A stretch of DNA of 32,566 nucleotides. It comes from a virus. The position numbers were made by a program, and so were the translations under genes. Below, piece by piece: positions 2,025 to 30,989 of the stretch. The stretch lies in UHGV virus genome UHGV-0085244; one strand, 5' to 3'. The stretch's first letter is position 1. Each line of letters opens with the position of its first letter. A model generated the notes under the pieces. That model was given only the letters and a program-made list of their open reading frames with translations, was not told where the DNA came from and did no database searches.

Positions 2025-5000
2025 GCGTCGTATCCCCCCTGATCGCTGTAGTTACTCCTGGCTTTTGCCTTCAGCCTGCGTTCACGTTCATCAAGCTGGC
2101 GGGCCACCTCCCGCGCAATATCCTGCGCACTTTGTCCTGGCTGCGTCTGAATGATGATCTGCGTCGGTGCCTCAATCCGTTGAACGAGCGGCACAGTGGC
2201 TGCGCGACTCACAATTGCTTCTCCACCTTTCGCGGGAAGTGCCAAGGGGTGCAACGGTGGAAGCTCTGCTGGCGCGGCAGCAACGCCCATCATTCCGGCA
2301 ACAACGGCAGCCAGTGCAGCTGTATTTCTCCGGCTGGTCACATTTGCCGGGCCGTTAACAATTTCCGGCCCGTTTTCACCGACGATGCCAAACTGCCCAC
2401 GCGGGATATAGCCGCCGCTGTCATACATCCCCGCAAAGCCATATCCCCATGACGGAAAACCACCCGATGGCATCATCACTTTACCGTCTGCATTCACCGT
2501 CGCAGGTTGCTGACGCGTCACGCTTTCCGGCAGTTTCGCCTTTGCAGCCTCTTTACTGACAATGCCGAGTTTATCCAGCAACCAGGAAACGCCAGATTTC
2601 AGGGAGTCCAGCGGATGCATAACCATATTCAGCCCTTCCGCCAGTGCCTCCCCGAATCGTCGCCCCATTGCCGCTGCGCTCTGCAGTTCGGCAGAGGTCG
2701 ACTTAACGGGCGTCAGCAGATCAGTAAACCAGCCCCACAGCGCCTGCACTTTGTCACCAATCCACTGGAACACAGGCTTAAGCGGTTCGAACGCTGCACT
2801 GATGGGACCTGCCGCCGCTTTGAATCCTTCCACCACGCCACCGAGAAATGCGGTGATGGGTTGCCAGTATTTCCAGACAACCAGTGCCACACCCGCCAGT
2901 GCAGTAACCACAAGACCTATCGGACTGAGCAAAGCACCTAACAGACCAGATACGGCATACAGGGCAACGCGCAACATCGCCAGTGGACCAGATGCCAGTA
3001 CTCGCAGCACCGTGCCTGCGGCAGCCAGCCCGCCGCGCAGTACCGCCAGAGGATTCATAAACATCACAGCAACAGCACGTAAAGCGGATAATCCAGACCG
3101 CAATAGTGCAACCGGCGCACCTGCTACAGTTTTCAGGACATTTCCCGTCAGTGATGCCGTACGGCGCAAAGACGACAACGGCGCAGTAAGTAAACCCGCT
3201 GCGTTACCCGATGAAGCAAGCCCGCGTCGCAGCACTGCCAGTGGAGCGCCAGCCAGCCAGGACAACGCGCTGCTGGTTCGTGTTACTGCTGCCATAACGG
3301 AAGGTAACGTTTTGATGCCCAGCACAGAGAATCCCAGACGGATGACTGCCAGCGGCCCCAGCACTGCAGCCAGCGCCACAGCCAGGGTGCCGAGGCCTAC
3401 GGTAACCGCAGCCACAATAGCGGCTACTTTCATCAGTGTGCCCGTCAGTTCCGGGTTAGCTTCCACCCAGCGACGCAACGCTCCCGTAACGCTTTTCACC
3501 GTGTACAGAATATCCATCAGCGGCTGGCGCAGCGTTTCGCCCAGGCTGCTGAAGGTATTCTGCGCTCCGGTTTTAACCAGCAACCACTGAGCAGAAAGTG
3601 AGTCCTTGTTGATGTCGGATTCTTTCTGCATGGAACCGAGCGCATCATTGCCCGCTGTCAGTTTTAGCTGGCGCTGCAGTTCCGGAAGGTTGTTTGCCAG
3701 TTTCGCCGCGTCATCACCAAACTCTTTACCAAACAACATGGTCATGGCAGACAGACGCTTGTCCTGCGGCAGTGCGTTCACCTTCTCCAGCACACGCTGG
3801 ATAGTTCCCATCGCATCCTTCGTCATCTGCTTTTCAATCACTTCAGGATTGAGTTTCAGCAGATTCATCCCTTCAAAGAAACTCTTGCTTTGCATGGTGG
3901 CAATGGACAATTCACGCACCATCGCGTTTGCTGCACTGGCTGCAACCTCCGGCGCAGCGCCCAGTGTCAGAAAGGTGGACCCCAGTGCCGCCGCTTTACG
4001 ATAATCCAGACGGTCAGCCACACCGCCCAGACGTTGCATCACATCAATGATGTCCGCCCCTTTCGACATGGCGTTATCATCCAGATAGTTCAGCGCATCG
4101 CCGAGCTGTTCAATATTGCGGGTAGGTATTTTGTAGAGCTGGGCGATTTTCCCCAGACTTTCTGACAGTTCATCCGCTGGCAGCTCAAAGGCTGTTGCCG
4201 CCTTTGCTGCCGTACTGGCGAAGGCCAGCAGGTCACGTTTCTGGTCTTCCCAGCTGTCGTCAGGGTTTGCGACGTTCATGCGCGCACCACCTTCAACCAG
4301 TGCAGCGAAGTCCACCGCACCGTTTTCCATCGGCAACTGTTCGCTGGCAGCCTTGATGGCATCCTGCATTTCATAAAAACGTGCAGTGCGGTTGCCATTA
4401 TCGTCACGCAGACCATTGACCTGCTTTGCCACACCTTTCATGGCATCTTCCATGCTGGTATAGCTTTTTACTGCCGCCATCACTGGCGCACCCATTGCCA
4501 GCCCTGCAGCCGTGGTGGTGGCTCCGGCACCTGCAATACGATCACGCACCTCCAGCGAACGGGCATAACTGGCACGCGCTGCATTCATCCTGCGCTGAGC
4601 TTCCCCCAGTCGCTTCAGCCGTGCCTCCTGTTTCGAAAGTTCCTGGTTATAACGTGATGTTTCACGGGCTAAACGGGCAGTTGCTCCCGCATCGTCTTTC
4701 GCAGAAATTCCCGCCCGGTACAGTTCAGCACGCACAAGCGCCGTCTGCTGCTGCAGCTTTTTCTGGCGTTCTTCCAGGCGCTGAACAGCCAGCCGTTGAC
4801 GGCCCAGAGCAACAACCTGACGTTGCGAAGGCGGCCCCATCGTTCCCAGTTCCTGACTGAGCAAATTTGCACGCTGGCGGGCATAGTTCAGCCTGTCGCC
4901 TAATTTCTGATTTTCTGCCTGCAGCTTTCGGAAGCTGTCCAGACTGCTCCCGGCCTGATCAAGCTGCTTTATTGCATCGCGGGATTTTTTGACAGCAGCA

Positions 5001-19088: not shown

Positions 19089-20855
19089 ATGAACACCACA
19101 CTGACACCCGCAGATCTCGATCCCCGTCGGCAGGCCATGCTGCTGTACTTTCAGGGATACCGCGTAGCCCGCATTGCTGAAATGCTGGGCGAGAAAGTTG
19201 CAACCGTTCACAGCTGGAAAAAACGCGACAAGTGGGGTGACTATGGGCCGCTGGATCAGATGCAGCTCACCACCGCCGCACGCTACTGCCAGCTCATTAT
19301 GAAGGAGCACAAAGAAGGGAAAGATTTCAAAGAGATTGACCTGCTGGCGCGCCAGTCGGAGCGCCACGCGCGGATCAGCAAGTTTAACAATGGCGGCAAC
19401 GAAGCCGACTTAAACCCTAACGTCGCCAACCGCAACAAAGGCCCGCGCCGTCAGCCGGAAAAGAATGTTTTCACCGATGAGCAGATTGAGAAGCTGGAAG
19501 AAATCTTCCATTCCTCCATGTTCAACTACCAGCGCCACTGGTGGGAAGCCGGAAAAGCCAACCGCATCCGCAACCTGCTGAAGTCACGCCAGATCGGCGC
19601 GACCTTTTACTTTGCCCGTGAAGCCCTGATTGACGCCCTGCTTACCGGACGTAACCAGATTTTCCTTTCCGCCAGTAAGGCACAGGCCCACGTCTTTAAA
19701 CAGTACATCATCGACTTCGCCAAAGAAGTGGAGGTGGAGCTGAAAGGCGATCCGATGGTGCTTCCCAACGGGGCCACTCTTTACTTCCTCGGCACCAATG
19801 CCCGCACGGCCCAGAGTTACCACGGCAACCTGTATCTGGATGAATATTTCTGGATACCGAAATTCCAGGAGCTGCGCAAAGTGGCTTCCGGTATGGCTAT
19901 TCACAAAAAATGGCGACAAACCTATTTTTCCACGCCATCCAGCCTGACCCACAGTGCTTATCCGTTCTGGTCCGGTGCACTGTTCAACCGTGGACGCAAC
20001 AAAGCCGACAAGGTGGACATCGACCTGTCCCATAGCAATCTGGCCCCCGGCCTGCTGTGCGCAGACGGGCAATACCGCCAGATAGTCACCGTGGAAGATG
20101 CGGTGCGCGGCGGCTGTAACCTGTTCGACCTTGACCAGTTGCGCATGGAGTACAGCCCGGACGAATACCAGAACCTGCTGATGTGCGAGTTCGTGGACGA
20201 TCTCGCGTCCGTGTTCCCGCTCAGCGAGCTGCAGGCGTGCATGGTGGACAGCTGGGAAGTCTGGACCGACTTTCATGCTCTGGCCCTGCGCCCGTTTGGC
20301 TGGCGCGAAGTGTGGATCGGTTATGACCCGGCAAAAGGTACGCAGAACGGCGACAGCGCCGGATGCGTGGTGGTGGCACCGCCAGCCGTGCCGGGCGGTA
20401 AGTTTCGCATTCTTGAGCGTCACCAGTGGCGCGGGATGGACTTCCGCGCCCAGGCTGACGCAATCAAAAAACTGACCGAGCAGTACAACGTGACCTACAT
20501 CGGCATCGACTCAACCGGCGTTGGTCACGGGGTTTACGAGAACGTGAAAGCGTTCTTTCCTGCCGTCCGGGAGTTTGTCTACAACCCCAACGTTAAAAAC
20601 GCCCTGGTACTCAAGGCCTACGACATTATCAGCCACCGCCGTCTGGAGTTTGACGCCGGACATACCGACATTGCGCAGTCATTTATGGCAATCCGTCGCA
20701 CCACCACCGCCAGTGGCAACCGCCCGACCTATGAAGCCAGCCGCAGCGAAGAAGCCAGCCACGCCGATCTGGCATGGGCAACGATGCACGCACTGTTTAA
20801 CGAACCGCTGCAGGGCGAATCCGCCAATACCAGCAATATTGTGGAGATTTTTTGA
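19089..20855 (+). CDS. P: Terminase large (ATPase) subunit P
   Basis: 588-aa ORF, P2 gpP-like; stop overlaps the Q start (TGATG). Confidence 0.9.
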   Translation: MNTTLTPADLDPRRQAMLLYFQGYRVARIAEMLGEKVATVHSWKKRDKWGDYGPLDQMQLTTAARYCQLIMKEHKEGKDFKEIDLLARQSERHARISKFNNGGNEADLNPNVANRNKGPRRQPEKNVFTDEQIEKLEEIFHSSMFNYQRHWWEAGKANRIRNLLKSRQIGATFYFAREALIDALLTGRNQIFLSASKAQAHVFKQYIIDFAKEVEVELKGDPMVLPNGATLYFLGTNARTAQSYHGNLYLDEYFWIPKFQELRKVASGMAIHKKWRQTYFSTPSSLTHSAYPFWSGALFNRGRNKADKVDIDLSHSNLAPGLLCADGQYRQIVTVEDAVRGGCNLFDLDQLRMEYSPDEYQNLLMCEFVDDLASVFPLSELQACMVDSWEVWTDFHALALRPFGWREVWIGYDPAKGTQNGDSAGCVVVAPPAVPGGKFRILERHQWRGMDFRAQADAIKKLTEQYNVTYIGIDSTGVGHGVYENVKAFFPAVREFVYNPNVKNALVLKAYDIISHRRLEFDAGHTDIAQSFMAIRRTTTASGNRPTYEASRSEEASHADLAWATMHALFNEPLQGESANTSNIVEIF

Positions 20856-21889
20856 TGGGAAAGAGTAAGAAGAACCGAGCTGCGGCGACGAAACAGATCC
20901 AGCTTAAAAGTCAAACTACAGCCGAAGCATTCAGCTTCGGCGATCCCGTTCCTGTTCTGGACCGCCGTGAACTGCTGGACTATGTGGAATGCGTACAGAT
21001 GGACCGTTGGTATGAGCCGCCCGTCAGCTTTGACGGACTGGCGCGCACCTTCCGCGCCGCCGTGCATCACAGTTCCCCGATTGCAGTAAAGTGCAACATT
21101 CTGACCAGTACCTATATCCCTCATCCGCTGCTCAGCCAGCAGGCTTTTTCGCGTTTTGTGCAGGACTATCTGGTATTTGGTAACGCCTACCTGGAGAAAC
21201 GCACGAACCGATTCGGTGAAGTTATCGCCCTTGAGCCTGCCCTGGCAAAATACACCCGACGTGGATTAGACCTGGATACCTACTGGTTTGTACAGTATGG
21301 CATGACCACGCAGCCCTATGAATTTACGCAGGGCAGCATCTTTCATCTGCTGGAGCCGGATATTAACCAGGAGATTTACGGGCTGCCAGGCTATCTCTCC
21401 GCCATCCCGTCAACCCTGCTCAACGAGTCCGCAACGCTGTTTCGCCGGAAGTATTACATCAACGGCAGCCACGCAGGTTTCATTATGTACATGACCGACG
21501 CAGCACAGAACCAGGAGGATGTGAACAATATCCGTCAGGCAATGAAAAGCGCCAAAGGACCGGGTAACTTCCGCAACCTGTTTATGTATTCGCCCAACGG
21601 CAAAAAGGACGGCATCCAGATCATCCCGTTATCAGAGGTTGCGGCGAAAGACGAGTTTCTTAACATCAAGAACGTTAGCCGCGATGACATGATGGCAGCG
21701 CACCGCGTGCCACCGCAGATGATGGGAATTATGCCGAGCAACGTTGGTGGGTTTGGAGACGTGGAAAAAGCTAGTCGAGTATTCGTTCGTAATGAATTGA
21801 TTCCACTTCAAAAAAGATTAATGGAATTAAATGAATGGCTTAATGACGAAATTATTCGTTTTGACGAATATAAATTAGGCGATGCTTGA
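20855..21889 (+). CDS. Q: Portal protein Q
   Basis: Track ORF 20852..21889 begins with TTG; ATG at 20855; P2 gpQ-like. Confidence 0.9.
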   Translation: MGKSKKNRAAATKQIQLKSQTTAEAFSFGDPVPVLDRRELLDYVECVQMDRWYEPPVSFDGLARTFRAAVHHSSPIAVKCNILTSTYIPHPLLSQQAFSRFVQDYLVFGNAYLEKRTNRFGEVIALEPALAKYTRRGLDLDTYWFVQYGMTTQPYEFTQGSIFHLLEPDINQEIYGLPGYLSAIPSTLLNESATLFRRKYYINGSHAGFIMYMTDAAQNQEDVNNIRQAMKSAKGPGNFRNLFMYSPNGKKDGIQIIPLSEVAAKDEFLNIKNVSRDDMMAAHRVPPQMMGIMPSNVGGFGDVEKASRVFVRNELIPLQKRLMELNEWLNDEIIRFDEYKLGDA

Positions 21890-21898
21890 TTAAAGCCT

Positions 21899-21932
21899 GT
21901 TTAAACTGGCTGTCGAAACAGCCAGTTTAAAC
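21899..21932. other. Perfect 15-bp-stem hairpin (4-nt loop) between convergent Q and the cargo operon; possible bidirectional terminator
   Basis: GTTTAAACTGGCTGT-CGAA-ACAGCCAGTTTAAAC; no flanking U-tract on either strand. Confidence 0.5.
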
Positions 21933-22775
21933 ACCGGCACCAATGAAATCGCCATATGAATCTTCTTCAAGGCTGATGTATTCCACCCTCCATTGATCCA
22001 TCCGCCTCAATGCATACAGGGAGAAATGAGTATCGGCAACAGCAATGCACGTATTCAATTCTATAAGCTCTGAATGTCCCAAGATTGGATCACCATAAAA
22101 CTTATAAAACAATGCCTTTAGATCAGAACAGGTTTGTTCAGCCGCCCCTCTGGCATCGGGGCCACCTTCAGTTGCATCATAAACAACATTGATAGAAAGC
22201 TCATATGGTATGCCTTCCTCAAGATCGTTAAATCTTTCTTCGCCCAAATCGAAAAAAACTCCGATCAAATGCTCTGCGTTTGTGGCGATAATGTCCGCAA
22301 CTTCTTTTTCGAAAATAAACTTTTTATCCTCGTCGTAAGCCCGCAAGCGCTCTTCAAACGAGTTAGGAAACGCTGGACGACCATACTTAGCTGCTAACCA
22401 TTGCTTAAGAGCTTGTTTCTCTTCTGTGCTAATGGAGAATGCCGGATCGTTTTCCTCACAACGGAAAGCTTCTTTAGAAATGATGACTTTTCTTTCATGC
22501 CGAAGCTCTACTGCGTTCTTCTTAGCACTTTCTGGGTTTTCAAAGCATAGATCGAGGATTCTCGGATGCTTAGCTCTTTTCATCTTGCTTGACCCCTTTT
22601 TCAAGGGGCCAAACATCAGTTCCACGTTTTTTTCAGAATTACTCTGTAAATCACAATCATGCGTTATAACTACAACTTTATGGTTCGTTTCATCAGGCTT
22701 CAGAAGTCCAAGTGAAACGGCATCATCATGTTTAAGAACATGCCCCTGACGCCATGATGTTCCTCGTACCAACAT
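21927..22775 (-). CDS. Hypothetical protein, third gene of the cargo operon; function unknown
   Basis: 282-aa ORF with ATG start 9 nt after the preceding stop; AT-rich; no P2/186 counterpart recognised. Confidence 0.7.
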   Translation of the reverse strand: MLVRGTSWRQGHVLKHDDAVSLGLLKPDETNHKVVVITHDCDLQSNSEKNVELMFGPLKKGSSKMKRAKHPRILDLCFENPESAKKNAVELRHERKVIISKEAFRCEENDPAFSISTEEKQALKQWLAAKYGRPAFPNSFEERLRAYDEDKKFIFEKEVADIIATNAEHLIGVFFDLGEERFNDLEEGIPYELSINVVYDATEGGPDARGAAEQTCSDLKALFYKFYGDPILGHSELIELNTCIAVADTHFSLYALRRMDQWRVEYISLEEDSYGDFIGAGV

Positions 22776-22784
22776 AAATGTGAT

Positions 22785-23447
22785 TTATTCCTCTACTGTT
22801 CTAGGAATTGAAATAGATGACTTCCAATCATCTGTCGGTTTCGCCTTGCTTGCTAAGTAATTGGTCGATTCAGCAGCTGCATTCATCGCTTTAGCTTCAT
22901 CAATCAGTACCTGAACTGGCTTGTTCCAATCCTCACCTTCTTTTATTAAGTCCATCAATGACCTACCATTGAATGCTTTCATTTTCACCAATAGCTTCGC
23001 ATCATTGAGTCCAGCTTTGGAAAAAGAGTCAGCAACATTACTGAGGTTGGTAATGAATTGGACTTTTGAAGCATCATCAGGCTGGTTCTCCCCTGACAAC
23101 CATTTATAGAGAGCCTGCCGAGTTATCCCCAAATCCTTAGCCAGTTCTGACATTGATGGAGACAGCACTTCTCGAATATTAGCCAAATGTTGGGCAACAT
23201 TCCTGACATCAACCTCAGGAGAAATTGCAGGCGTGTACGTTGACTCTATGGAATCAAATGCAAACTGAACCCTTGGCTGAACATACTGACGCCATTGCTT
23301 ATAAGCATTTACAGGGTATGAAGCCCCCGTACCAACTAATAGTAAAGATGCGGCGACAGCAACAACACCTGATACACATGAGCTTGACTGCGAATCTGGA
23401 GTATACCGATCTACAGAGCCTATGCTTCCAGTAGGAATTGCATACAT
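22785..23447 (-). CDS. XRE-family helix-turn-helix protein with N-terminal hydrophobic segment, second gene of the cargo operon
   Basis: HTH ...NVAQHLANIREVLSPSMSELAKDLGITRQALYKWLSGENQP; start placed at the ATG (MYAIPTG...) after a GGGGGTGA RBS; the track's longer form 22785..23555 would overlap the upstream gene by 89 nt; start uncertain. Confidence 0.65.
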   Translation of the reverse strand: MYAIPTGSIGSVDRYTPDSQSSSCVSGVVAVAASLLLVGTGASYPVNAYKQWRQYVQPRVQFAFDSIESTYTPAISPEVDVRNVAQHLANIREVLSPSMSELAKDLGITRQALYKWLSGENQPDDASKVQFITNLSNVADSFSKAGLNDAKLLVKMKAFNGRSLMDLIKEGEDWNKPVQVLIDEAKAMNAAAESTNYLASKAKPTDDWKSSISIPRTVEE

Positions 23448-23466
23448 TTTAGTCACCCCCGTTGTT

Positions 23467-24276
23467 TCAGTGCCATTTAGCACGGGCAAAATCTGAAACC
23501 ATGCCTTCAAATGCTTCTTTAACTTTACTATGCAACGAAAGAATCTGTTTTTCAATTAACTGCAAATCAGTTGACATGTTGCCTTCAACATAATGATCTG
23601 TATCAATTATTGCGTGCATACGATGTTCTGTATTACTAAATCTCGGCAGCGGCAGTAAACCATTAGGAATCATATCTGGCGGAAAACCTAGCTGACCATT
23701 CATCTTATGTATACGTGAAACCATAAATCCATTAGAGATCAGTGGCTCAACACATGTCTGATATACAGACTCTTGTATGGACTGTATTGGCGTCCATCCA
23801 AAATCAACACCATGAAGTTCCTTTACAAGATACTGCTCAATTGTTTCGCTTTTCTCAGGAAACACAGCATCCAAATATCGAAGCCCAATCCTGCTTACCA
23901 ACGATGGCTTAGCAAATTCAAGAACTTTGCTCAGACCAAGTATTAATGACGAGATGAAAGGTACATGATTATCATAATCTGTTGTATGGAACGTAATGAA
24001 ATCGTTGCCTAAAACAAAACCAGACCTTCTATCTGCATCAATCATCAACCAACTTGTCACAGGCTCAAATGAATGTACCGGTGGCTCATTGGGGTTTTTC
24101 ATTTCAAATTTCAGCTGAGTTGTATTGGAAACTTCAAATAAAGGAAATCCTTCAACTCTTAGCGCATCTTGTATGTCTGGAACATACTTACTCATTGCAG
24201 CTACTGGAGTAAACTTTACTTGCACCAATGCGTAGTAAACGGGCGCATTGGACATACGTTCGCTGTTAGTACTCAT
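23467..24276 (-). CDS. Hypothetical protein, first gene of the cargo operon; function unknown
   Basis: 269-aa ORF with AGGAGG RBS 5 nt before the ATG; N-terminus (SNAPVYYALVQVKF) faintly recalls an uncharacterised TIGR04255-type family, from memory and unverified. Confidence 0.7.
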   Translation of the reverse strand: MSTNSERMSNAPVYYALVQVKFTPVAAMSKYVPDIQDALRVEGFPLFEVSNTTQLKFEMKNPNEPPVHSFEPVTSWLMIDADRRSGFVLGNDFITFHTTDYDNHVPFISSLILGLSKVLEFAKPSLVSRIGLRYLDAVFPEKSETIEQYLVKELHGVDFGWTPIQSIQESVYQTCVEPLISNGFMVSRIHKMNGQLGFPPDMIPNGLLPLPRFSNTEHRMHAIIDTDHYVEGNMSTDLQLIEKQILSLHSKVKEAFEGMVSDFARAKWH

Positions 24277-24416
24277 GCCGCCCTCCTTGAAGTTGTTTCA
24301 TCTCATATCTCTCTATCTCACTAACTGTAGTTTACACATAGGTTGACACTTTCTCCATCATTAAGTTCACTATGACATCAATAGCCAAAACTCTTACATA
24401 ATCGCTTCGGCGCGCG

Positions 24417-24435
24417 CTCGTATCCCCGCCACGCC
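24417..24435 (-). other. Candidate cos site (cohesive-end sequence)
   Basis: Minus strand reads GGCGTGGCGGGGATACGAG; the first 13 nt match the 5' part of the P2/186 cohesive ends as I recall them; orientation is correct for a cos that reads toward Q. Confidence 0.5.
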
Positions 24436-24480
24436 TGCCCGCTTTATGTAGTGGTTTTCATGCACCTGCATGATCTACGC

Positions 24481-24504
24481 AAAAGCCCGCCAGTTCTGGC
24501 GGGC
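24481..24504 (-). terminator. Rho-independent terminator after the DinI-like gene
   Basis: Stem GCCCGCCAG / CTGGCGGGC with a 3-nt loop, followed on the minus strand by TTTT. Confidence 0.6.
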
Positions 24505-24639
24505 CTTAGCAAAAACGATCCTCAAACGATCATGCGATCTCATGCGGCATAGACATGCACTACAGAGCTAACGCCTCGCAAGGGCTCGTTGTTCAACCTT
24601 GCTGACGCCAGAAACAAGTTCAGACGCCAGCAACGTTTC

Positions 24640-24873
24640 TTAATGCAGCCAGCTGTCGTCTTCCCACACCTTCTGCATAATTTTCATCACTTGTTTTCTT
24701 TCTTCGTCCAGTTGCAGTCCGGTCAGTTCCACACCGTTAGAGCTACCTTTGCGGATACGAATTACCGTTTTGGGATACAGGGGGCGCAGATTGCGGTAAA
24801 GCTCGGATTCAAGGGCGTCCAGTGTAGACTGGCTAATCTTCTGCTCTTTATCGATCATTATTTCAATGCGCAT
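24640..24873 (-). CDS. DinI-family protein (Tum-like, possible SOS-dependent antirepressor component)
   Basis: MRIEIMIDKEQKISQSTLDALESELYRNLRPLYPKTVIRIRKGSSNGVELTGL...WEDDSWLH resembles DinI; GAGGTGA RBS before the ATG at 24873 (track ORF 24640..24945). Confidence 0.75.
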   Translation of the reverse strand: MRIEIMIDKEQKISQSTLDALESELYRNLRPLYPKTVIRIRKGSSNGVELTGLQLDEERKQVMKIMQKVWEDDSWLH

Positions 24874-24883
24874 AAAAGTCACC

Positions 24884-25072
24884 TCAGCTGATGACATCCA
24901 TTGAGCGGTTGTATTCATGGGTTCTGATTTTTGCCATGAGTTCATCTGTCAGTTCAGAAACCCACTGCAGGGCCAGCCCCTTCTCTTCATCACTACACTC
25001 ACTAGCCGCTACAAGCTTAAGAAAAAAATCAATGCGCTGGAGCTTCAAAGACTCCAAAAAATAGTCCTGCAT
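24884..25072 (-). CDS. Small hypothetical protein, first gene of the LexA-controlled operon
   Basis: 62-aa ORF with AGGAGG RBS, immediately downstream of the LexA box and ending just before the DinI-like gene RBS. Confidence 0.5.
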   Translation of the reverse strand: MQDYFLESLKLQRIDFFLKLVAASECSDEEKGLALQWVSELTDELMAKIRTHEYNRSMDVIS

Positions 25073-25112
25073 CTTTCCTCCTATGACACCAAAGCAATAC
25101 TGTATACATAAC

Positions 25113-25132
25113 CACTGTTTATATTTACAGTA
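25113..25132. promoter_or_regulatory. LexA operator (SOS box) upstream of the orf62 / DinI-like operon
   Basis: CACTGTTTATATTTACAGTA fits CTGT-N8-ACAG; an adjacent half-site TACTGTATACATAACC at about 25098-25113. Confidence 0.7.
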
Positions 25133-25224
25133 TATAATAATCTTACTGATGTAAAACGTTTTTTTACGTTCATCAGCCTGATATGCCTAGTATTATTAAG
25201 AGCACGAATTGTTAACCCGCGTAA

Positions 25225-27639
25225 TTAATACAGATCCCGCCACTTATCATCTTCCTGCAAACGCTGGTTCCGATAGAAGATACGCAGGCCTGCTCCTGAC
25301 GGAATACTGCCACCGCGAAGGAGTAAATCGACCTCTTTCTCGCTTCCATCAAATCCTCTGGACTTCAGTTCATAGACGAGCTGCTGTCGCTGATGATCTG
25401 TAATTCGCTGTTTGTAGTCTCTACGCCGTTTCGGTTTCACCAGGCGTAACCTTGCAGCCAGTTCCCGGCGCTCTTTTTTGTTCATACTGTGCAGGTAATC
25501 GTGCAATTCCTTGTCATCCATGCAGGTGATATCCGTTCTGGTATCCCCATCAGCTGATTTGTCTTTCCCTTGTTGGTACAAATTTTCAGCAAGGGGACAG
25601 TTATTGCCACGAGTCCAAGGGGCGCAAGCGCCCTGGTCGGCTGCCGCCTCCTGAACGTCAACGGCCTTACGAACCATTTTCCACTTCACTACATGAGTGC
25701 AGATCTTGCCCTCTGCAATGGGTGACCAGATGCCATAAATACGAATACCGTGATCGCCATAGGCGGTTGGCTCTTCGTTGATTTCATAAGCGGTTCTGAT
25801 GAGGTGATATTTGCGGGGAACCAGTACGCCGCCCTGCTTCATGATGTAGGTGGCAAAACAACCAGCATCAGCAGCAGCCAGAATGGCATCAAGACGCGGG
25901 TTATCCAGTACCGGCGCACCTGCTTTTTTGTCACCCTGTTGCCTTGCCGCCTGACCAGCCAGCAAGCGAAGTTCACGGTAAGCCTGACGTCCCGGAATAC
26001 CAAAGAAGCGGAATTGCTGAACACGATGCAGAGACGCCCAGGCATTAACGTATTCAGCGTTATCACGCAGGGATTTACCCGTTTCCTTGCTGATCTCGCC
26101 AGCCAGACCACGCCCGTCAATGTTCTTACTGATGTATTTCGCGATGTAGCTTGTCGGCGTTCCTTTGCGCGGGTTTATCAGCTCAGATTTAAAGCGTGGA
26201 CCAGTGTTATTACCCAGTTCCTCGCGGTCTTCACGGATGGCAAACTTACGCAACAATGCAGTAATGGCGCGGCGGTCTTTTTTGCGCATGAAACACAACA
26301 GGTGCCAGTGAACTGTACCGTCATGATGCGGCTCAGCCACCCGCACGCCATACCAGCGCAACCCGGCTTTGTGCATCGCCTTACGAAATGCAGCAAACAT
26401 GCCGACCAGATAATCGCTGCTTTGTCTTACCGTCGCATTTGTCCAGGTTGGGTTTGGTCTGCCGTTATTGAGCGTGGAATGGAAACGTGACGGACAGGTA
26501 ATGGTGTAGAAAACGGCGCAGTCACCGCGCATTTCCGCGATAAGCTCCAGACCTTTAACACAGGCCATCATCTCATTGCGGCGGTGCGCCGGGTTGCTGC
26601 TGCTGGCGTTTACCACGTCTTCCATATCCAGCGTGTCGCCCTCTTCGTTCACCAGTTCATGAGAACGGAAAAACTCCAGTGACTTGCGGCGCTGCTCACG
26701 TTTATGCATCACGGCTTCATAGCTGACATAGGGAGATGCTTTTTTGCTGACCAGGCAGACAGCACGCAACTGCTCTTCCCGCCATTCGCAACGCATTTTC
26801 CATAATTTCCGGTACCACCAGTCGGCGCACAACATACGCGCCAGCGAACCCGGAATGAGTTCATAGGGCACGGGTTTACGGCGGTTTCTTTTCCGACGGA
26901 GTTGCTCAAACGCAGGCGGGATGACATCCAGACGCAGGGTTTCCGCTGCCACCTTTTCCCATGTCTTGCGGATTTCTTCTGGCTTAACGTCATCGGTGGC
27001 ATACAAATCACCACAAGCTGCATCAAGGCACATGCTCATATGCGCAGCGACAAGGGTAGACAGGCGTTTCACCTGATCCTGACTCATTTCAGGCAGAATC
27101 AGCAGGCCGTCCAGCCCTACATGGCTTGCCATAAAACGAAAAGATGCAGATAGCTGGCTGTCGCGTACATGCTCCAGTCGTTCCAGACATGGCTTAATCG
27201 TCTCACGTAAATAGCGGGAATAAGCCTTTGGCCTGCCCAGGCTGCTGAAGTATTCAATACGTTGCATCAGCGGCTTGCTGATATGGGAGGGCTGGGCGCT
27301 GACGTCTACCAGAATGACCATGTCCGGGTTAAAACGCTGCTGCTCATGCGCCAACTTTGCCCGGCTAATGAGCTTATCCTGCTCTATTTCGCGTTGGACA
27401 GGATCACGGGATTCATTAAAGAAATAACGCTCCCAGACCTGATCACTCAGTGCCTCGCGGCGCAGTTGTTCCTGCTCGTTATCGGCAGCGTACAGAGTGA
27501 TCAGGTTTGAAAGCGCAGAAACCGGCGCAACTTCCGCCGGGTCCAGATAAGGGTTAATGGCCTTTTTCGGGCTGTTCCATGAGAACGATGCGGCAGCCTC
27601 TTTAAAGCCGCAGCAGTTGCTCATATCGGCATGGCTCAT
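25225..27639 (-). CDS. A: Replication initiation protein A (rolling-circle nicking endonuclease)
   Basis: 804-aa ORF with HWHLL (HUH-like) and YIAKYISK tyrosine motifs; P2 gpA-like. Confidence 0.9.
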
Positions 27640-30419: not shown

Positions 30420-30989
30420 ATGAATTTGGAGAAAGGCGGACGAGGCGCCATAGAGCGCATGGTAGAAGCTTATGGATTCAAGACTCGACAGGCGTTGTGC
30501 GATCATTTAGGAATCTCTAAAAGTACACTCGCCACACGCTACATGCGTGACTCATTCCCAGCAGAATGGGTAATCCAGTGCGCCCTTGAAACAGGCACCT
30601 CGCTTAATTGGCTCACAACCGGGCATGGTTCAAAGCAAACTTCAGGTAATACAAATACTATGGAAGTTGCTAAATATGTATTATCTGATGGGGCCTTGTG
30701 TGAAGACGGTTTTTATATTTTCGATAGAGAATTTCTACCGTCGGCATTCAAGAATCTTTTTGTAATCACAGATAATAATTCTGAATTTATTTGTGATAAG
30801 GAATTTGATGATATACGTGATGGTAAATGGGTAATAAGTATTGATGGCGAAATAACGATCCGTGACATTACTCGTTTACCCGGTGGAAGAATCTTCGTCG
30901 AGGGTGGAAACAGAGCCTTCGAATGTAAGATAGAAGACATTGAAATAATTGGTAAAATTATAAGTTTAACAGTCAAGTATGTTAAATAG
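30420..30989 (+). CDS. Immunity repressor (186 CI-like)
   Basis: About 190 aa with N-terminal HTH (QALCDHLGISKSTLATRYMRD); ATG at 30420 after GGAG (track start GTG at 30414); divergent from the early operon and co-directional with int. Confidence 0.7.
   Translation: MNLEKGGRGAIERMVEAYGFKTRQALCDHLGISKSTLATRYMRDSFPAEWVIQCALETGTSLNWLTTGHGSKQTSGNTNTMEVAKYVLSDGALCEDGFYIFDREFLPSAFKNLFVITDNNSEFICDKEFDDIRDGKWVISIDGEITIRDITRLPGGRIFVEGGNRAFECKIEDIEIIGKIISLTVKYVK

Follow-up and report, generated by a model that had tools for sequence, protein, structure and literature searches.

This locus raises the question of what a short minus-strand operon, placed behind a LexA-type SOS box and ending in a DinI-family gene, does for the virus that carries it, and which of its two small proteins would do the work. 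The window, by which we mean the whole stretch of 32,566 nucleotides that was analysed (UHGV virus genome UHGV-0085244), is by its sequence a Fels-2-like prophage of the P2 family, of the Fels-2/186 type. The region shares 95-98% identity with Fels-2-like Peduoviridae of E. coli, Klebsiella, and Salmonella. An 804-aa minus-strand ORF, annotated at this position in close relatives as a replication protein or as P2 gpA-like, ends at 25225, and the first small ORF (ORF1) begins at 25072 in the same direction; an operon directly after gene A is also the layout of 186, PSP3, Fels-2, and DuoHS. Genes for Cox/Apl, CII, integrase, and CI lie in the window as well, 5 kb from the operon. Taken with the evidence below, this very probably makes the operon the split-tum version of the switch by which DNA damage induces P2-like prophages of the Fels-2/186 type. 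The system is already known: a near-identical copy has been characterised in DuoHS, and for about twenty years both publications and GenBank annotation have shown tum of Fels-2 and PSP3 as split.

A sequence-only reading of this DNA had proposed that a promoter with an SOS box, a 62-aa ORF, a 77-aa DinI-family ORF, and an intrinsic terminator form one minus-strand operon. All of these elements are present where that reading placed them (Table 1). Both ORFs have Shine-Dalgarno sequences of their own, and the terminator, which had been put at 24481-24504, appears in the minimum-energy fold as a stem followed by UUUU; a simple terminator scan missed it.

Table 1. Features of the putative SOS-controlled operon and of related genes in the window (SD, Shine-Dalgarno sequence).
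Feature	Coordinates	Strand	Details
Putative sigma-70 promoter	25127..25155	-	-35 TTTACA 25155..25150, 17-nt spacer, -10 TACTGT 25132..25127
SOS (LexA) box 1	25113..25132	-	17/20 matches to the consensus palindrome
SOS box 2, degenerate	25098..25117	-	CAGTGGTTATGTATACAGTA; 5-bp overlap with box 1
ORF1, 62 aa, putative antirepressor of the Tum-N/TumA type	24884..25072	-	SD AGGAGGA 25082..25076
Six-pair hairpin GTCATC-AGCTGA-GGTGAC	24878..24895	-	Covers the ORF1 stop codon and the ORF2 SD
ORF2, 77 aa, DinI family, TumB equivalent	24640..24873	-	SD GAGGTG
Long hairpin without U-run	24595..24637	-	Directly 3' of the ORF2 stop; position of the 186 partial terminator t95a
Intrinsic terminator of the operon	24481..24510 (about)	-	G+C-rich stem GGCCCGCCAG/CUGGCGGGCU, then UUUU, in the minimum-energy fold
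Two large ORFs, putative terminase/portal	19089..20855, 20852..21889	+	Named by position in relatives
CI immunity repressor, 189 aa from the ATG at 30420	30420..30989	+	Phage_CI_repr PF07022 and Phage_CI_C PF16452

Box 1 (25113-25132) reads CACTGTTTATATTTACAGTA on the plus strand and TACTGTAAATATAAACAGTG on the coding strand. Its CTGT-N8-ACAG core occurs once in the window, where 0.55 occurrences are expected and 38 of 100 shuffles hold at least one, and by itself it has no significance here. When up to three mismatches from the LexA consensus TACTGTATATATATACAGTA are allowed, the full 20-mer is matched once in the window and in none of 100 shuffles, and at the sequence level the box claimed at this position is upheld. 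Its sequence is also nearly invariant across 80 IMG/VR loci. The promoter was identified through its likeness to p95 as annotated in 186 (TTCACA-N18-TACTGT), in which the LexA site begins at the -10. Here the TTTACA lies about 70 nt downstream of the 804-aa ORF end, and the -10, TACTGT, sits within SOS box 1 and forms its start, as it does in p95. The promoter sequence is kept in Fels-2, DuoHS, and 813R9. A scan for consensus sigma-70 promoters did not list TTTACA-N17-TACTGT because the -10 fits TATAAT at only three of six positions.

The sequence-only reading missed a second, degenerate SOS box. Read from 25132 to 25098, the operator consists of two overlapping LexA boxes, the second with a GTG left arm, and it has the sequence of a colicin-type pair of overlapping SOS boxes. 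A 44-nt operator query finds stretches of ~90% identity in small Col plasmids, immediately 5' of the colicin Y and cloacin genes; the 20-mer of box 2 is identical upstream of colicin Y and differs by one mismatch upstream of cloacin. What is shared is a 35-bp pattern, TACTGT-N8-ACAGTGG-N8-ACAGTA, and colicin double boxes of this kind bind two LexA dimers, which makes expression very tight or delayed (PMC2994835). The two arrangements differ in that the Col plasmid boxes lie just downstream of the -10, whereas here the -10 is inside box 1, and in that the genes controlled there are unrelated to those of the tum operon. The likeness ends at the box edges, with none beyond them, and thus nothing supports a recent exchange with Col plasmids. 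Fels-2, DuoHS, SopEPhi, one Yersinia phage, and one Klebsiella phage keep the double box between diverged flanks, and the strict double-box pattern is found in 63 of the 80 IMG/VR loci, whose variation falls mostly in the box-2 spacer and just downstream while the arms are conserved. A single SOS box is present in 186, PSP3, and the ESSI-2-like phages. We found no description of a double SOS operator for this operon in the literature examined.

The assignment of ORF2 to the DinI family holds. Its product matches Pfam DinI (PF06183) over profile positions 1-63 of 63 with 81.3 bits against a cut-off of 24.2 (E 6.6e-23), and it matches the solved DinI structure 1GHH (E 2.7e-6), with the acidic C-terminal WEDDSW of ORF2 aligned to WESADDW of 1GHH. 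It aligns without gaps to residues 71-145 of 186 Tum (41% identity, E 3e-24) and is 78% identical to PSP3 TumB. Against the NCBIfam equivalog for chromosomal E. coli DinI (NF007893) it scores 42.7 bits, below the cut-off of 111, and it is therefore a phage DinI-like paralogue and not dinI. Judged by its family membership, ORF2 most likely acts on RecA filaments, tuning the SOS signal, rather than on CI.

Pairwise BLASTP gives no similarity of ORF1 to 186 Tum or to PSP3 TumA, so the relationship is revealed by profiles only. We built three alignments: 28 diverse ORF1 relatives from an exhaustive search (34-73% identity, all stand-alone small proteins), the relatives of Tum residues 1-70, and the relatives of PSP3 TumA. 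Compared with hhalign, the ORF1 family matches the family of the 186 Tum N-half, residues 2-44 to residues 2-44, with 96.4% probability and an E-value of 1.4e-9 over 43 columns. Tum-N in turn matches PSP3 TumA (85%, E 6e-6), while the direct match of the ORF1 family to TumA is weak (8.7%, E 0.004) and falls on the same C..AL..(I/V)..L columns; the link between ORF1 and TumA is thus an indirect one, via 186 Tum-N. ORF1 has no Pfam or NCBIfam match, its match in PHROGs (phrog_698) is labelled 'unknown function', and RefSeq names the 62-aa protein 'hypothetical protein'. Pfam, NCBIfam, and PHROGs assign the family no function, a gap that we did not find described in the literature examined. AlphaFold2 models ORF1 as a hairpin of two helices (pLDDT 88). 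No Tum N-module structure is present in the PDB, and a Foldseek search with the model returned generic helical hairpins only, none with E < 0.001.

The ORF1 relatives form a stand-alone family of 55-75 aa. An exhaustive phmmer search over 1.84 billion representatives found no protein in which ORF1 is fused to a DinI domain, and no such fusion is present among the best 120 matches from a collection of 5.8 billion proteins. The relatives of the 186 Tum N-half (P0182-P0301) are likewise mostly stand-alone proteins, of 63-91 aa and without a DinI domain, and several of them are named 'Tum protein'; the split state appears to be common in the 186-type lineage too. In ESSI2_ev015 and Cronobacter phage ESSI-2 (L008 and L009), an ORF1 homologue of 41-49% identity stands behind a single SOS box, with no DinI-like gene downstream of it. 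From these phages it follows that the antirepressor module can stand alone, and their arrangement fits ORF1 as the essential part of the operon.

How the two ORFs are joined was a further point raised by the sequence-only reading, which asked whether a single frameshift would fuse them into a Tum-like protein. It would: ORF2 is in the +1 frame relative to ORF1, its frame is open from 24948, and deletion of 1 nt within ORF1 codons 42-62 would yield a fusion of about 140 aa. As ORF1 corresponds to Tum residues 2-44 and ORF2 to Tum residues 71-145, the two ORFs are collinear with the two halves of Tum, and the layout and both sets of matches support the earlier suggestion that a Tum analogue is present here in split, two-component form. 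Whereas the 146-aa Tum of 186 unites both modules in one polypeptide, the window has two ORFs in different frames, the variant known from Fels-2 and PSP3. A Tum-like fusion of 144 aa would also arise if ribosomes underwent a programmed +1 shift at the end of ORF1, but this was rejected: no slippery or stimulatory sequence is present, and the pre-stop codon is unconserved, differing in Fels-2 (AGC vs AAT). A short hairpin lies between the two ORFs at 24878-24895, with a stem that is kept in Fels-2 and DuoHS and a loop that is altered in Fels-2. Speculatively, this hairpin may couple the translation of ORF1 and ORF2; alternatively, it could pause transcription between them.

The known relatives place the operon more closely. 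Tum of 186 is a LexA-controlled anti-CI factor (PMC7708051), and binding to CI is established only for this member (PMC3121763, PMC7708051). The 186 record lists p95, a LexA site at the -10, tum (146 aa, with internal starts), t95a, orf97, and t95b, and notes that the shortest tum product, the DinI-like part, 'modulates SOS induction'. The window shares with 186 the position after gene A, the -10 TACTGT inside the LexA box, the N-terminal antirepressor and C-terminal DinI modules, and a 186-type CI that, as in 186, has no Peptidase_S24 domain above cut-off. It differs from 186 in that Tum there is a single polypeptide with internal starts, in having two overlapping SOS boxes rather than one, and in lacking orf97; the N-modules of 186 Tum and ORF1 are related only at the profile level.

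Splitting of tum has been described for Fels-2 and PSP3 (Lemire et al. 2011, citing Bunny, Liu & Roth 2002; PMC3121763), and in PSP3 the antirepressor activity is carried by the upstream gene, tumA (PMC3121763). The PSP3 record describes tumA as 'similar to 5' end 186 tum; UV induction of prophage' and tumB as 'similar to dinI and 3' end of 186 tum'; a literature search for TumA and TumB returned only noise. PSP3 thus resembles the window in having a split tum behind a LexA box, but its tumA and tumB are in the same frame with a TAG codon between them, its SOS box is single, and TumA comes from another N-module family than ORF1. Fels-2 is closer, with a split tum (STM2728/STM2726.1), a LexA box, and the same double box; STM2728 is 98% identical to ORF1, although its CI is only 39.6% identical to that of the window. 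The dinI-antirepressor operons of the Gifsy phages (GfoA, GftA) are also LexA-controlled and pair a DinI homologue with a small antirepressor that acts against a non-cleavable repressor, but they have the reversed order, dinI first, and belong to lambdoid phages (PMC3121763). The Gifsy antirepressor families were not among the relatives found for ORF1 and are set apart here by description.

The closest system is DuoHS, a prophage of E. coli HS. In the DuoHS study, deletion of tum (ECHS_RS04495) and the lexA(Ind-) allele each abolish mitomycin C-induced lysis, the deletion being described, in the text examined, without complementation (PMC12055606). In the HS genome, ECHS_RS04495 is a 189-nt gene for a 'hypothetical protein', directly upstream of the DinI-like gene ECHS_RS04500. 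Its product is identical to ORF1 at 61 of 62 residues, the two CI proteins are identical at all 189 positions, and the regulatory regions are nearly identical, so that the window carries essentially the switch that was tested genetically. In DuoHS two bases differ in the spacer of SOS box 2, and the stretch from the DinI gene to the portal gene holds other genes. With PSP3 tumA, this result corrects one point of the sequence-only reading, whose title implied that the antirepressor is the DinI-family protein; the literature gives that activity to the small ORF upstream (PSP3 tumA, ECHS_RS04495).

A mechanism can be laid over the anatomy, the homologies, and the near-identity to a tested system that are observed here, with LexA binding, the contact between ORF1 and CI, and the role of ORF2 carried over from relatives. 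In the lysogen, LexA would sit on the double operator, which overlaps the -10 and start region downstream of gene A, and the operon would be silent. Upon DNA damage, RecA is expected to be activated and LexA to cleave itself, allowing the operon to be transcribed. ORF1, with its predicted two-helix fold and homology to the N-half of Tum, would then bind the 186-type CI and block its binding to operators, and we propose that the early lytic promoter is thereby released and the prophage induced. ORF2, presumably translated from its own ribosome-binding site and corresponding to the C-half of Tum, would tune the SOS response via RecA.

Two other accounts of the ORFs need to be weighed against this mechanism. 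The DinI-like ORF2 could be the real inducer, working via RecA or on CI, with ORF1 accessory or unrelated. Of the two products, only that of ORF2 has a recognised domain; one half of 186 Tum is DinI-like, and in databases the entire Tum carries the label 'RecA filament binding protein DinI'. However, the gene deleted as tum in DuoHS is the orthologue of ORF1 and not the DinI gene, the PSP3 activity is assigned to the upstream gene (PMC3121763), the DinI-only product of 186 is said in its record to 'modulate' induction, and the ESSI-2-like phages, which lack a DinI gene, have retained a homologue of ORF1 downstream of an SOS box. We consider an inducing role for ORF2 very unlikely. The frame offset, which the deletion of one base would convert into a 186-like fusion, could also be read as decay, the two ORFs being a frameshifted, functionless tum pseudogene in a defective prophage. 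Each ORF, however, has a strong Shine-Dalgarno sequence of its own; the same split and frame offset recur in Fels-2, DuoHS, SopEPhi, and the Yersinia and Klebsiella phages; and ORF1 belongs to a stand-alone family whose conservation extends to members of only 34% identity. DuoHS and Fels-2 are, moreover, inducible phages, as stated in PMC3121763 and PMC12055606. Decay is contradicted by these observations, and we give it next to no credence.

The target of ORF1 is presumed, by analogy with 186, to be CI. The window CI matches the 186 CI structure 2FJR (E 2.6e-31), which points to a repressor of the 186 type, and its match to Peptidase_S24 is below the Pfam cut-off; it is probably not cleavable by RecA. 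Among at least 593 IMG/VR stretches that carry the module, the best 80 loci (L013-L092) all encode an ORF1 that is 100% identical to that of the window, and the CI proteins that accompany it share between 39% and 100% identity with the window CI. The same pattern of an identical ORF1 with varied CI is seen among GenBank phages. The CI divergence lies mostly in the C-terminal domain, where identity falls to 25%, while the N-terminal DNA-binding domain is 67-100% identical, and the antirepressor does not co-vary with the C-terminal domain. Of the 26 CI residues that are invariant among the partners, 23 fall within residues 7-68, in the N-terminal domain, and these include the patch RDSFPAEW, which corresponds to RGAISYDF in 186 CI. 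We found no description of an identical ORF1 with many CI types in the literature examined.

That one ORF1 should be paired with CI proteins of down to 39% identity is not what a specific antirepressor and its repressor would lead one to expect, unless ORF1 contacts the conserved N-terminal domain. An identical 62-aa protein beside such varied partners could also mean that ORF1 triggers induction without binding CI, by acting on another conserved factor of phage or host, such as Apl, CII, or LexA. We regard this as quite unlikely, since the half of 186 Tum to which ORF1 is homologous acts on CI (PMC3121763, PMC7708051) and since the conservation of the CI N-terminal domain, with its cluster of invariant residues, leaves a conserved contact surface available on CI itself. 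The simplest reading of the sequences, then, is that the Tum family to which ORF1 belongs contacts the N-terminal domain of CI, and such a contact would permit prophages that differ in the C-terminal domain of CI to cross-induce one another. We tentatively extend this to a broader proposal, which we think somewhat more apt to fail than to hold. ORF1 might be a 'master key' that contacts the conserved N-terminal domain of CI (the RDSFPAEW patch) and not the variable oligomerisation domain, and that could therefore serve CI proteins differing by up to 60%; one SOS-induced copy might then cross-induce several heteroimmune Fels-2-like prophages within one cell, with the double operator, which 186 and PSP3 lack, setting a higher or later damage threshold in this lineage.

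The module is common. It is present in 1281 of 5426 complete E. coli genomes, about a quarter, and it sets the moment at which these prophages, a very common enterobacterial family, turn lytic after DNA damage, a timing that bears on antibiotic-induced phage release and on gene transfer. Because the mechanism is established, the practical value of the present analysis lies mostly in annotation: the profile match to 186 Tum and the genetics of DuoHS justify naming the 62-aa protein an antirepressor. The double SOS box, and one antirepressor paired with many CI types, are modest leads on induction thresholds and on cross-talk between prophages.

The region downstream of the operon holds several further features. 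The whole 3' region folds with z = -3.3, and an Rfam search of 21800-25400 returned nothing meaningful. Between the operon terminator and the portal gene lies a minus-strand cargo island (21927-24276) that encodes a 269-aa protein of the TIGR04255 family (E 2.5e-54), an overlapping HTH-containing ORF (listed as 256 aa), and a 282-aa protein without a family. This island is absent from Fels-2, DuoHS, and 813R9. PADLOC gave no match for ORF1, ORF2, or the cargo genes apart from weak HTH hits. The island occupies a position that is a known hotspot of anti-phage genes in P2-like phages.

Fels-2 and DuoHS have an extra gene between the DinI gene and a shared terminator segment (window 24559-24639 against L001 2161-3001). 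In Fels-2 this gene is 732 nt, the same length as orf97 of 186, and the window is without such a gene; the segment that follows the extra orf97-like gene in both phages is the one found at 24558..24410 in the window. A conserved element of ~31 nt, GGTTGAACAACGAGCCCTTGCGAGGCGTTA, lies at 24567-24598, downstream of the tum/DinI genes. It is found again after orf97 in 186 and twice in PSP3, where it flanks variable genes (copies at L003 4884-4914 and at L004 about 3598-3628 and 4000-4029), and it may represent a cassette boundary or a recombination junction.
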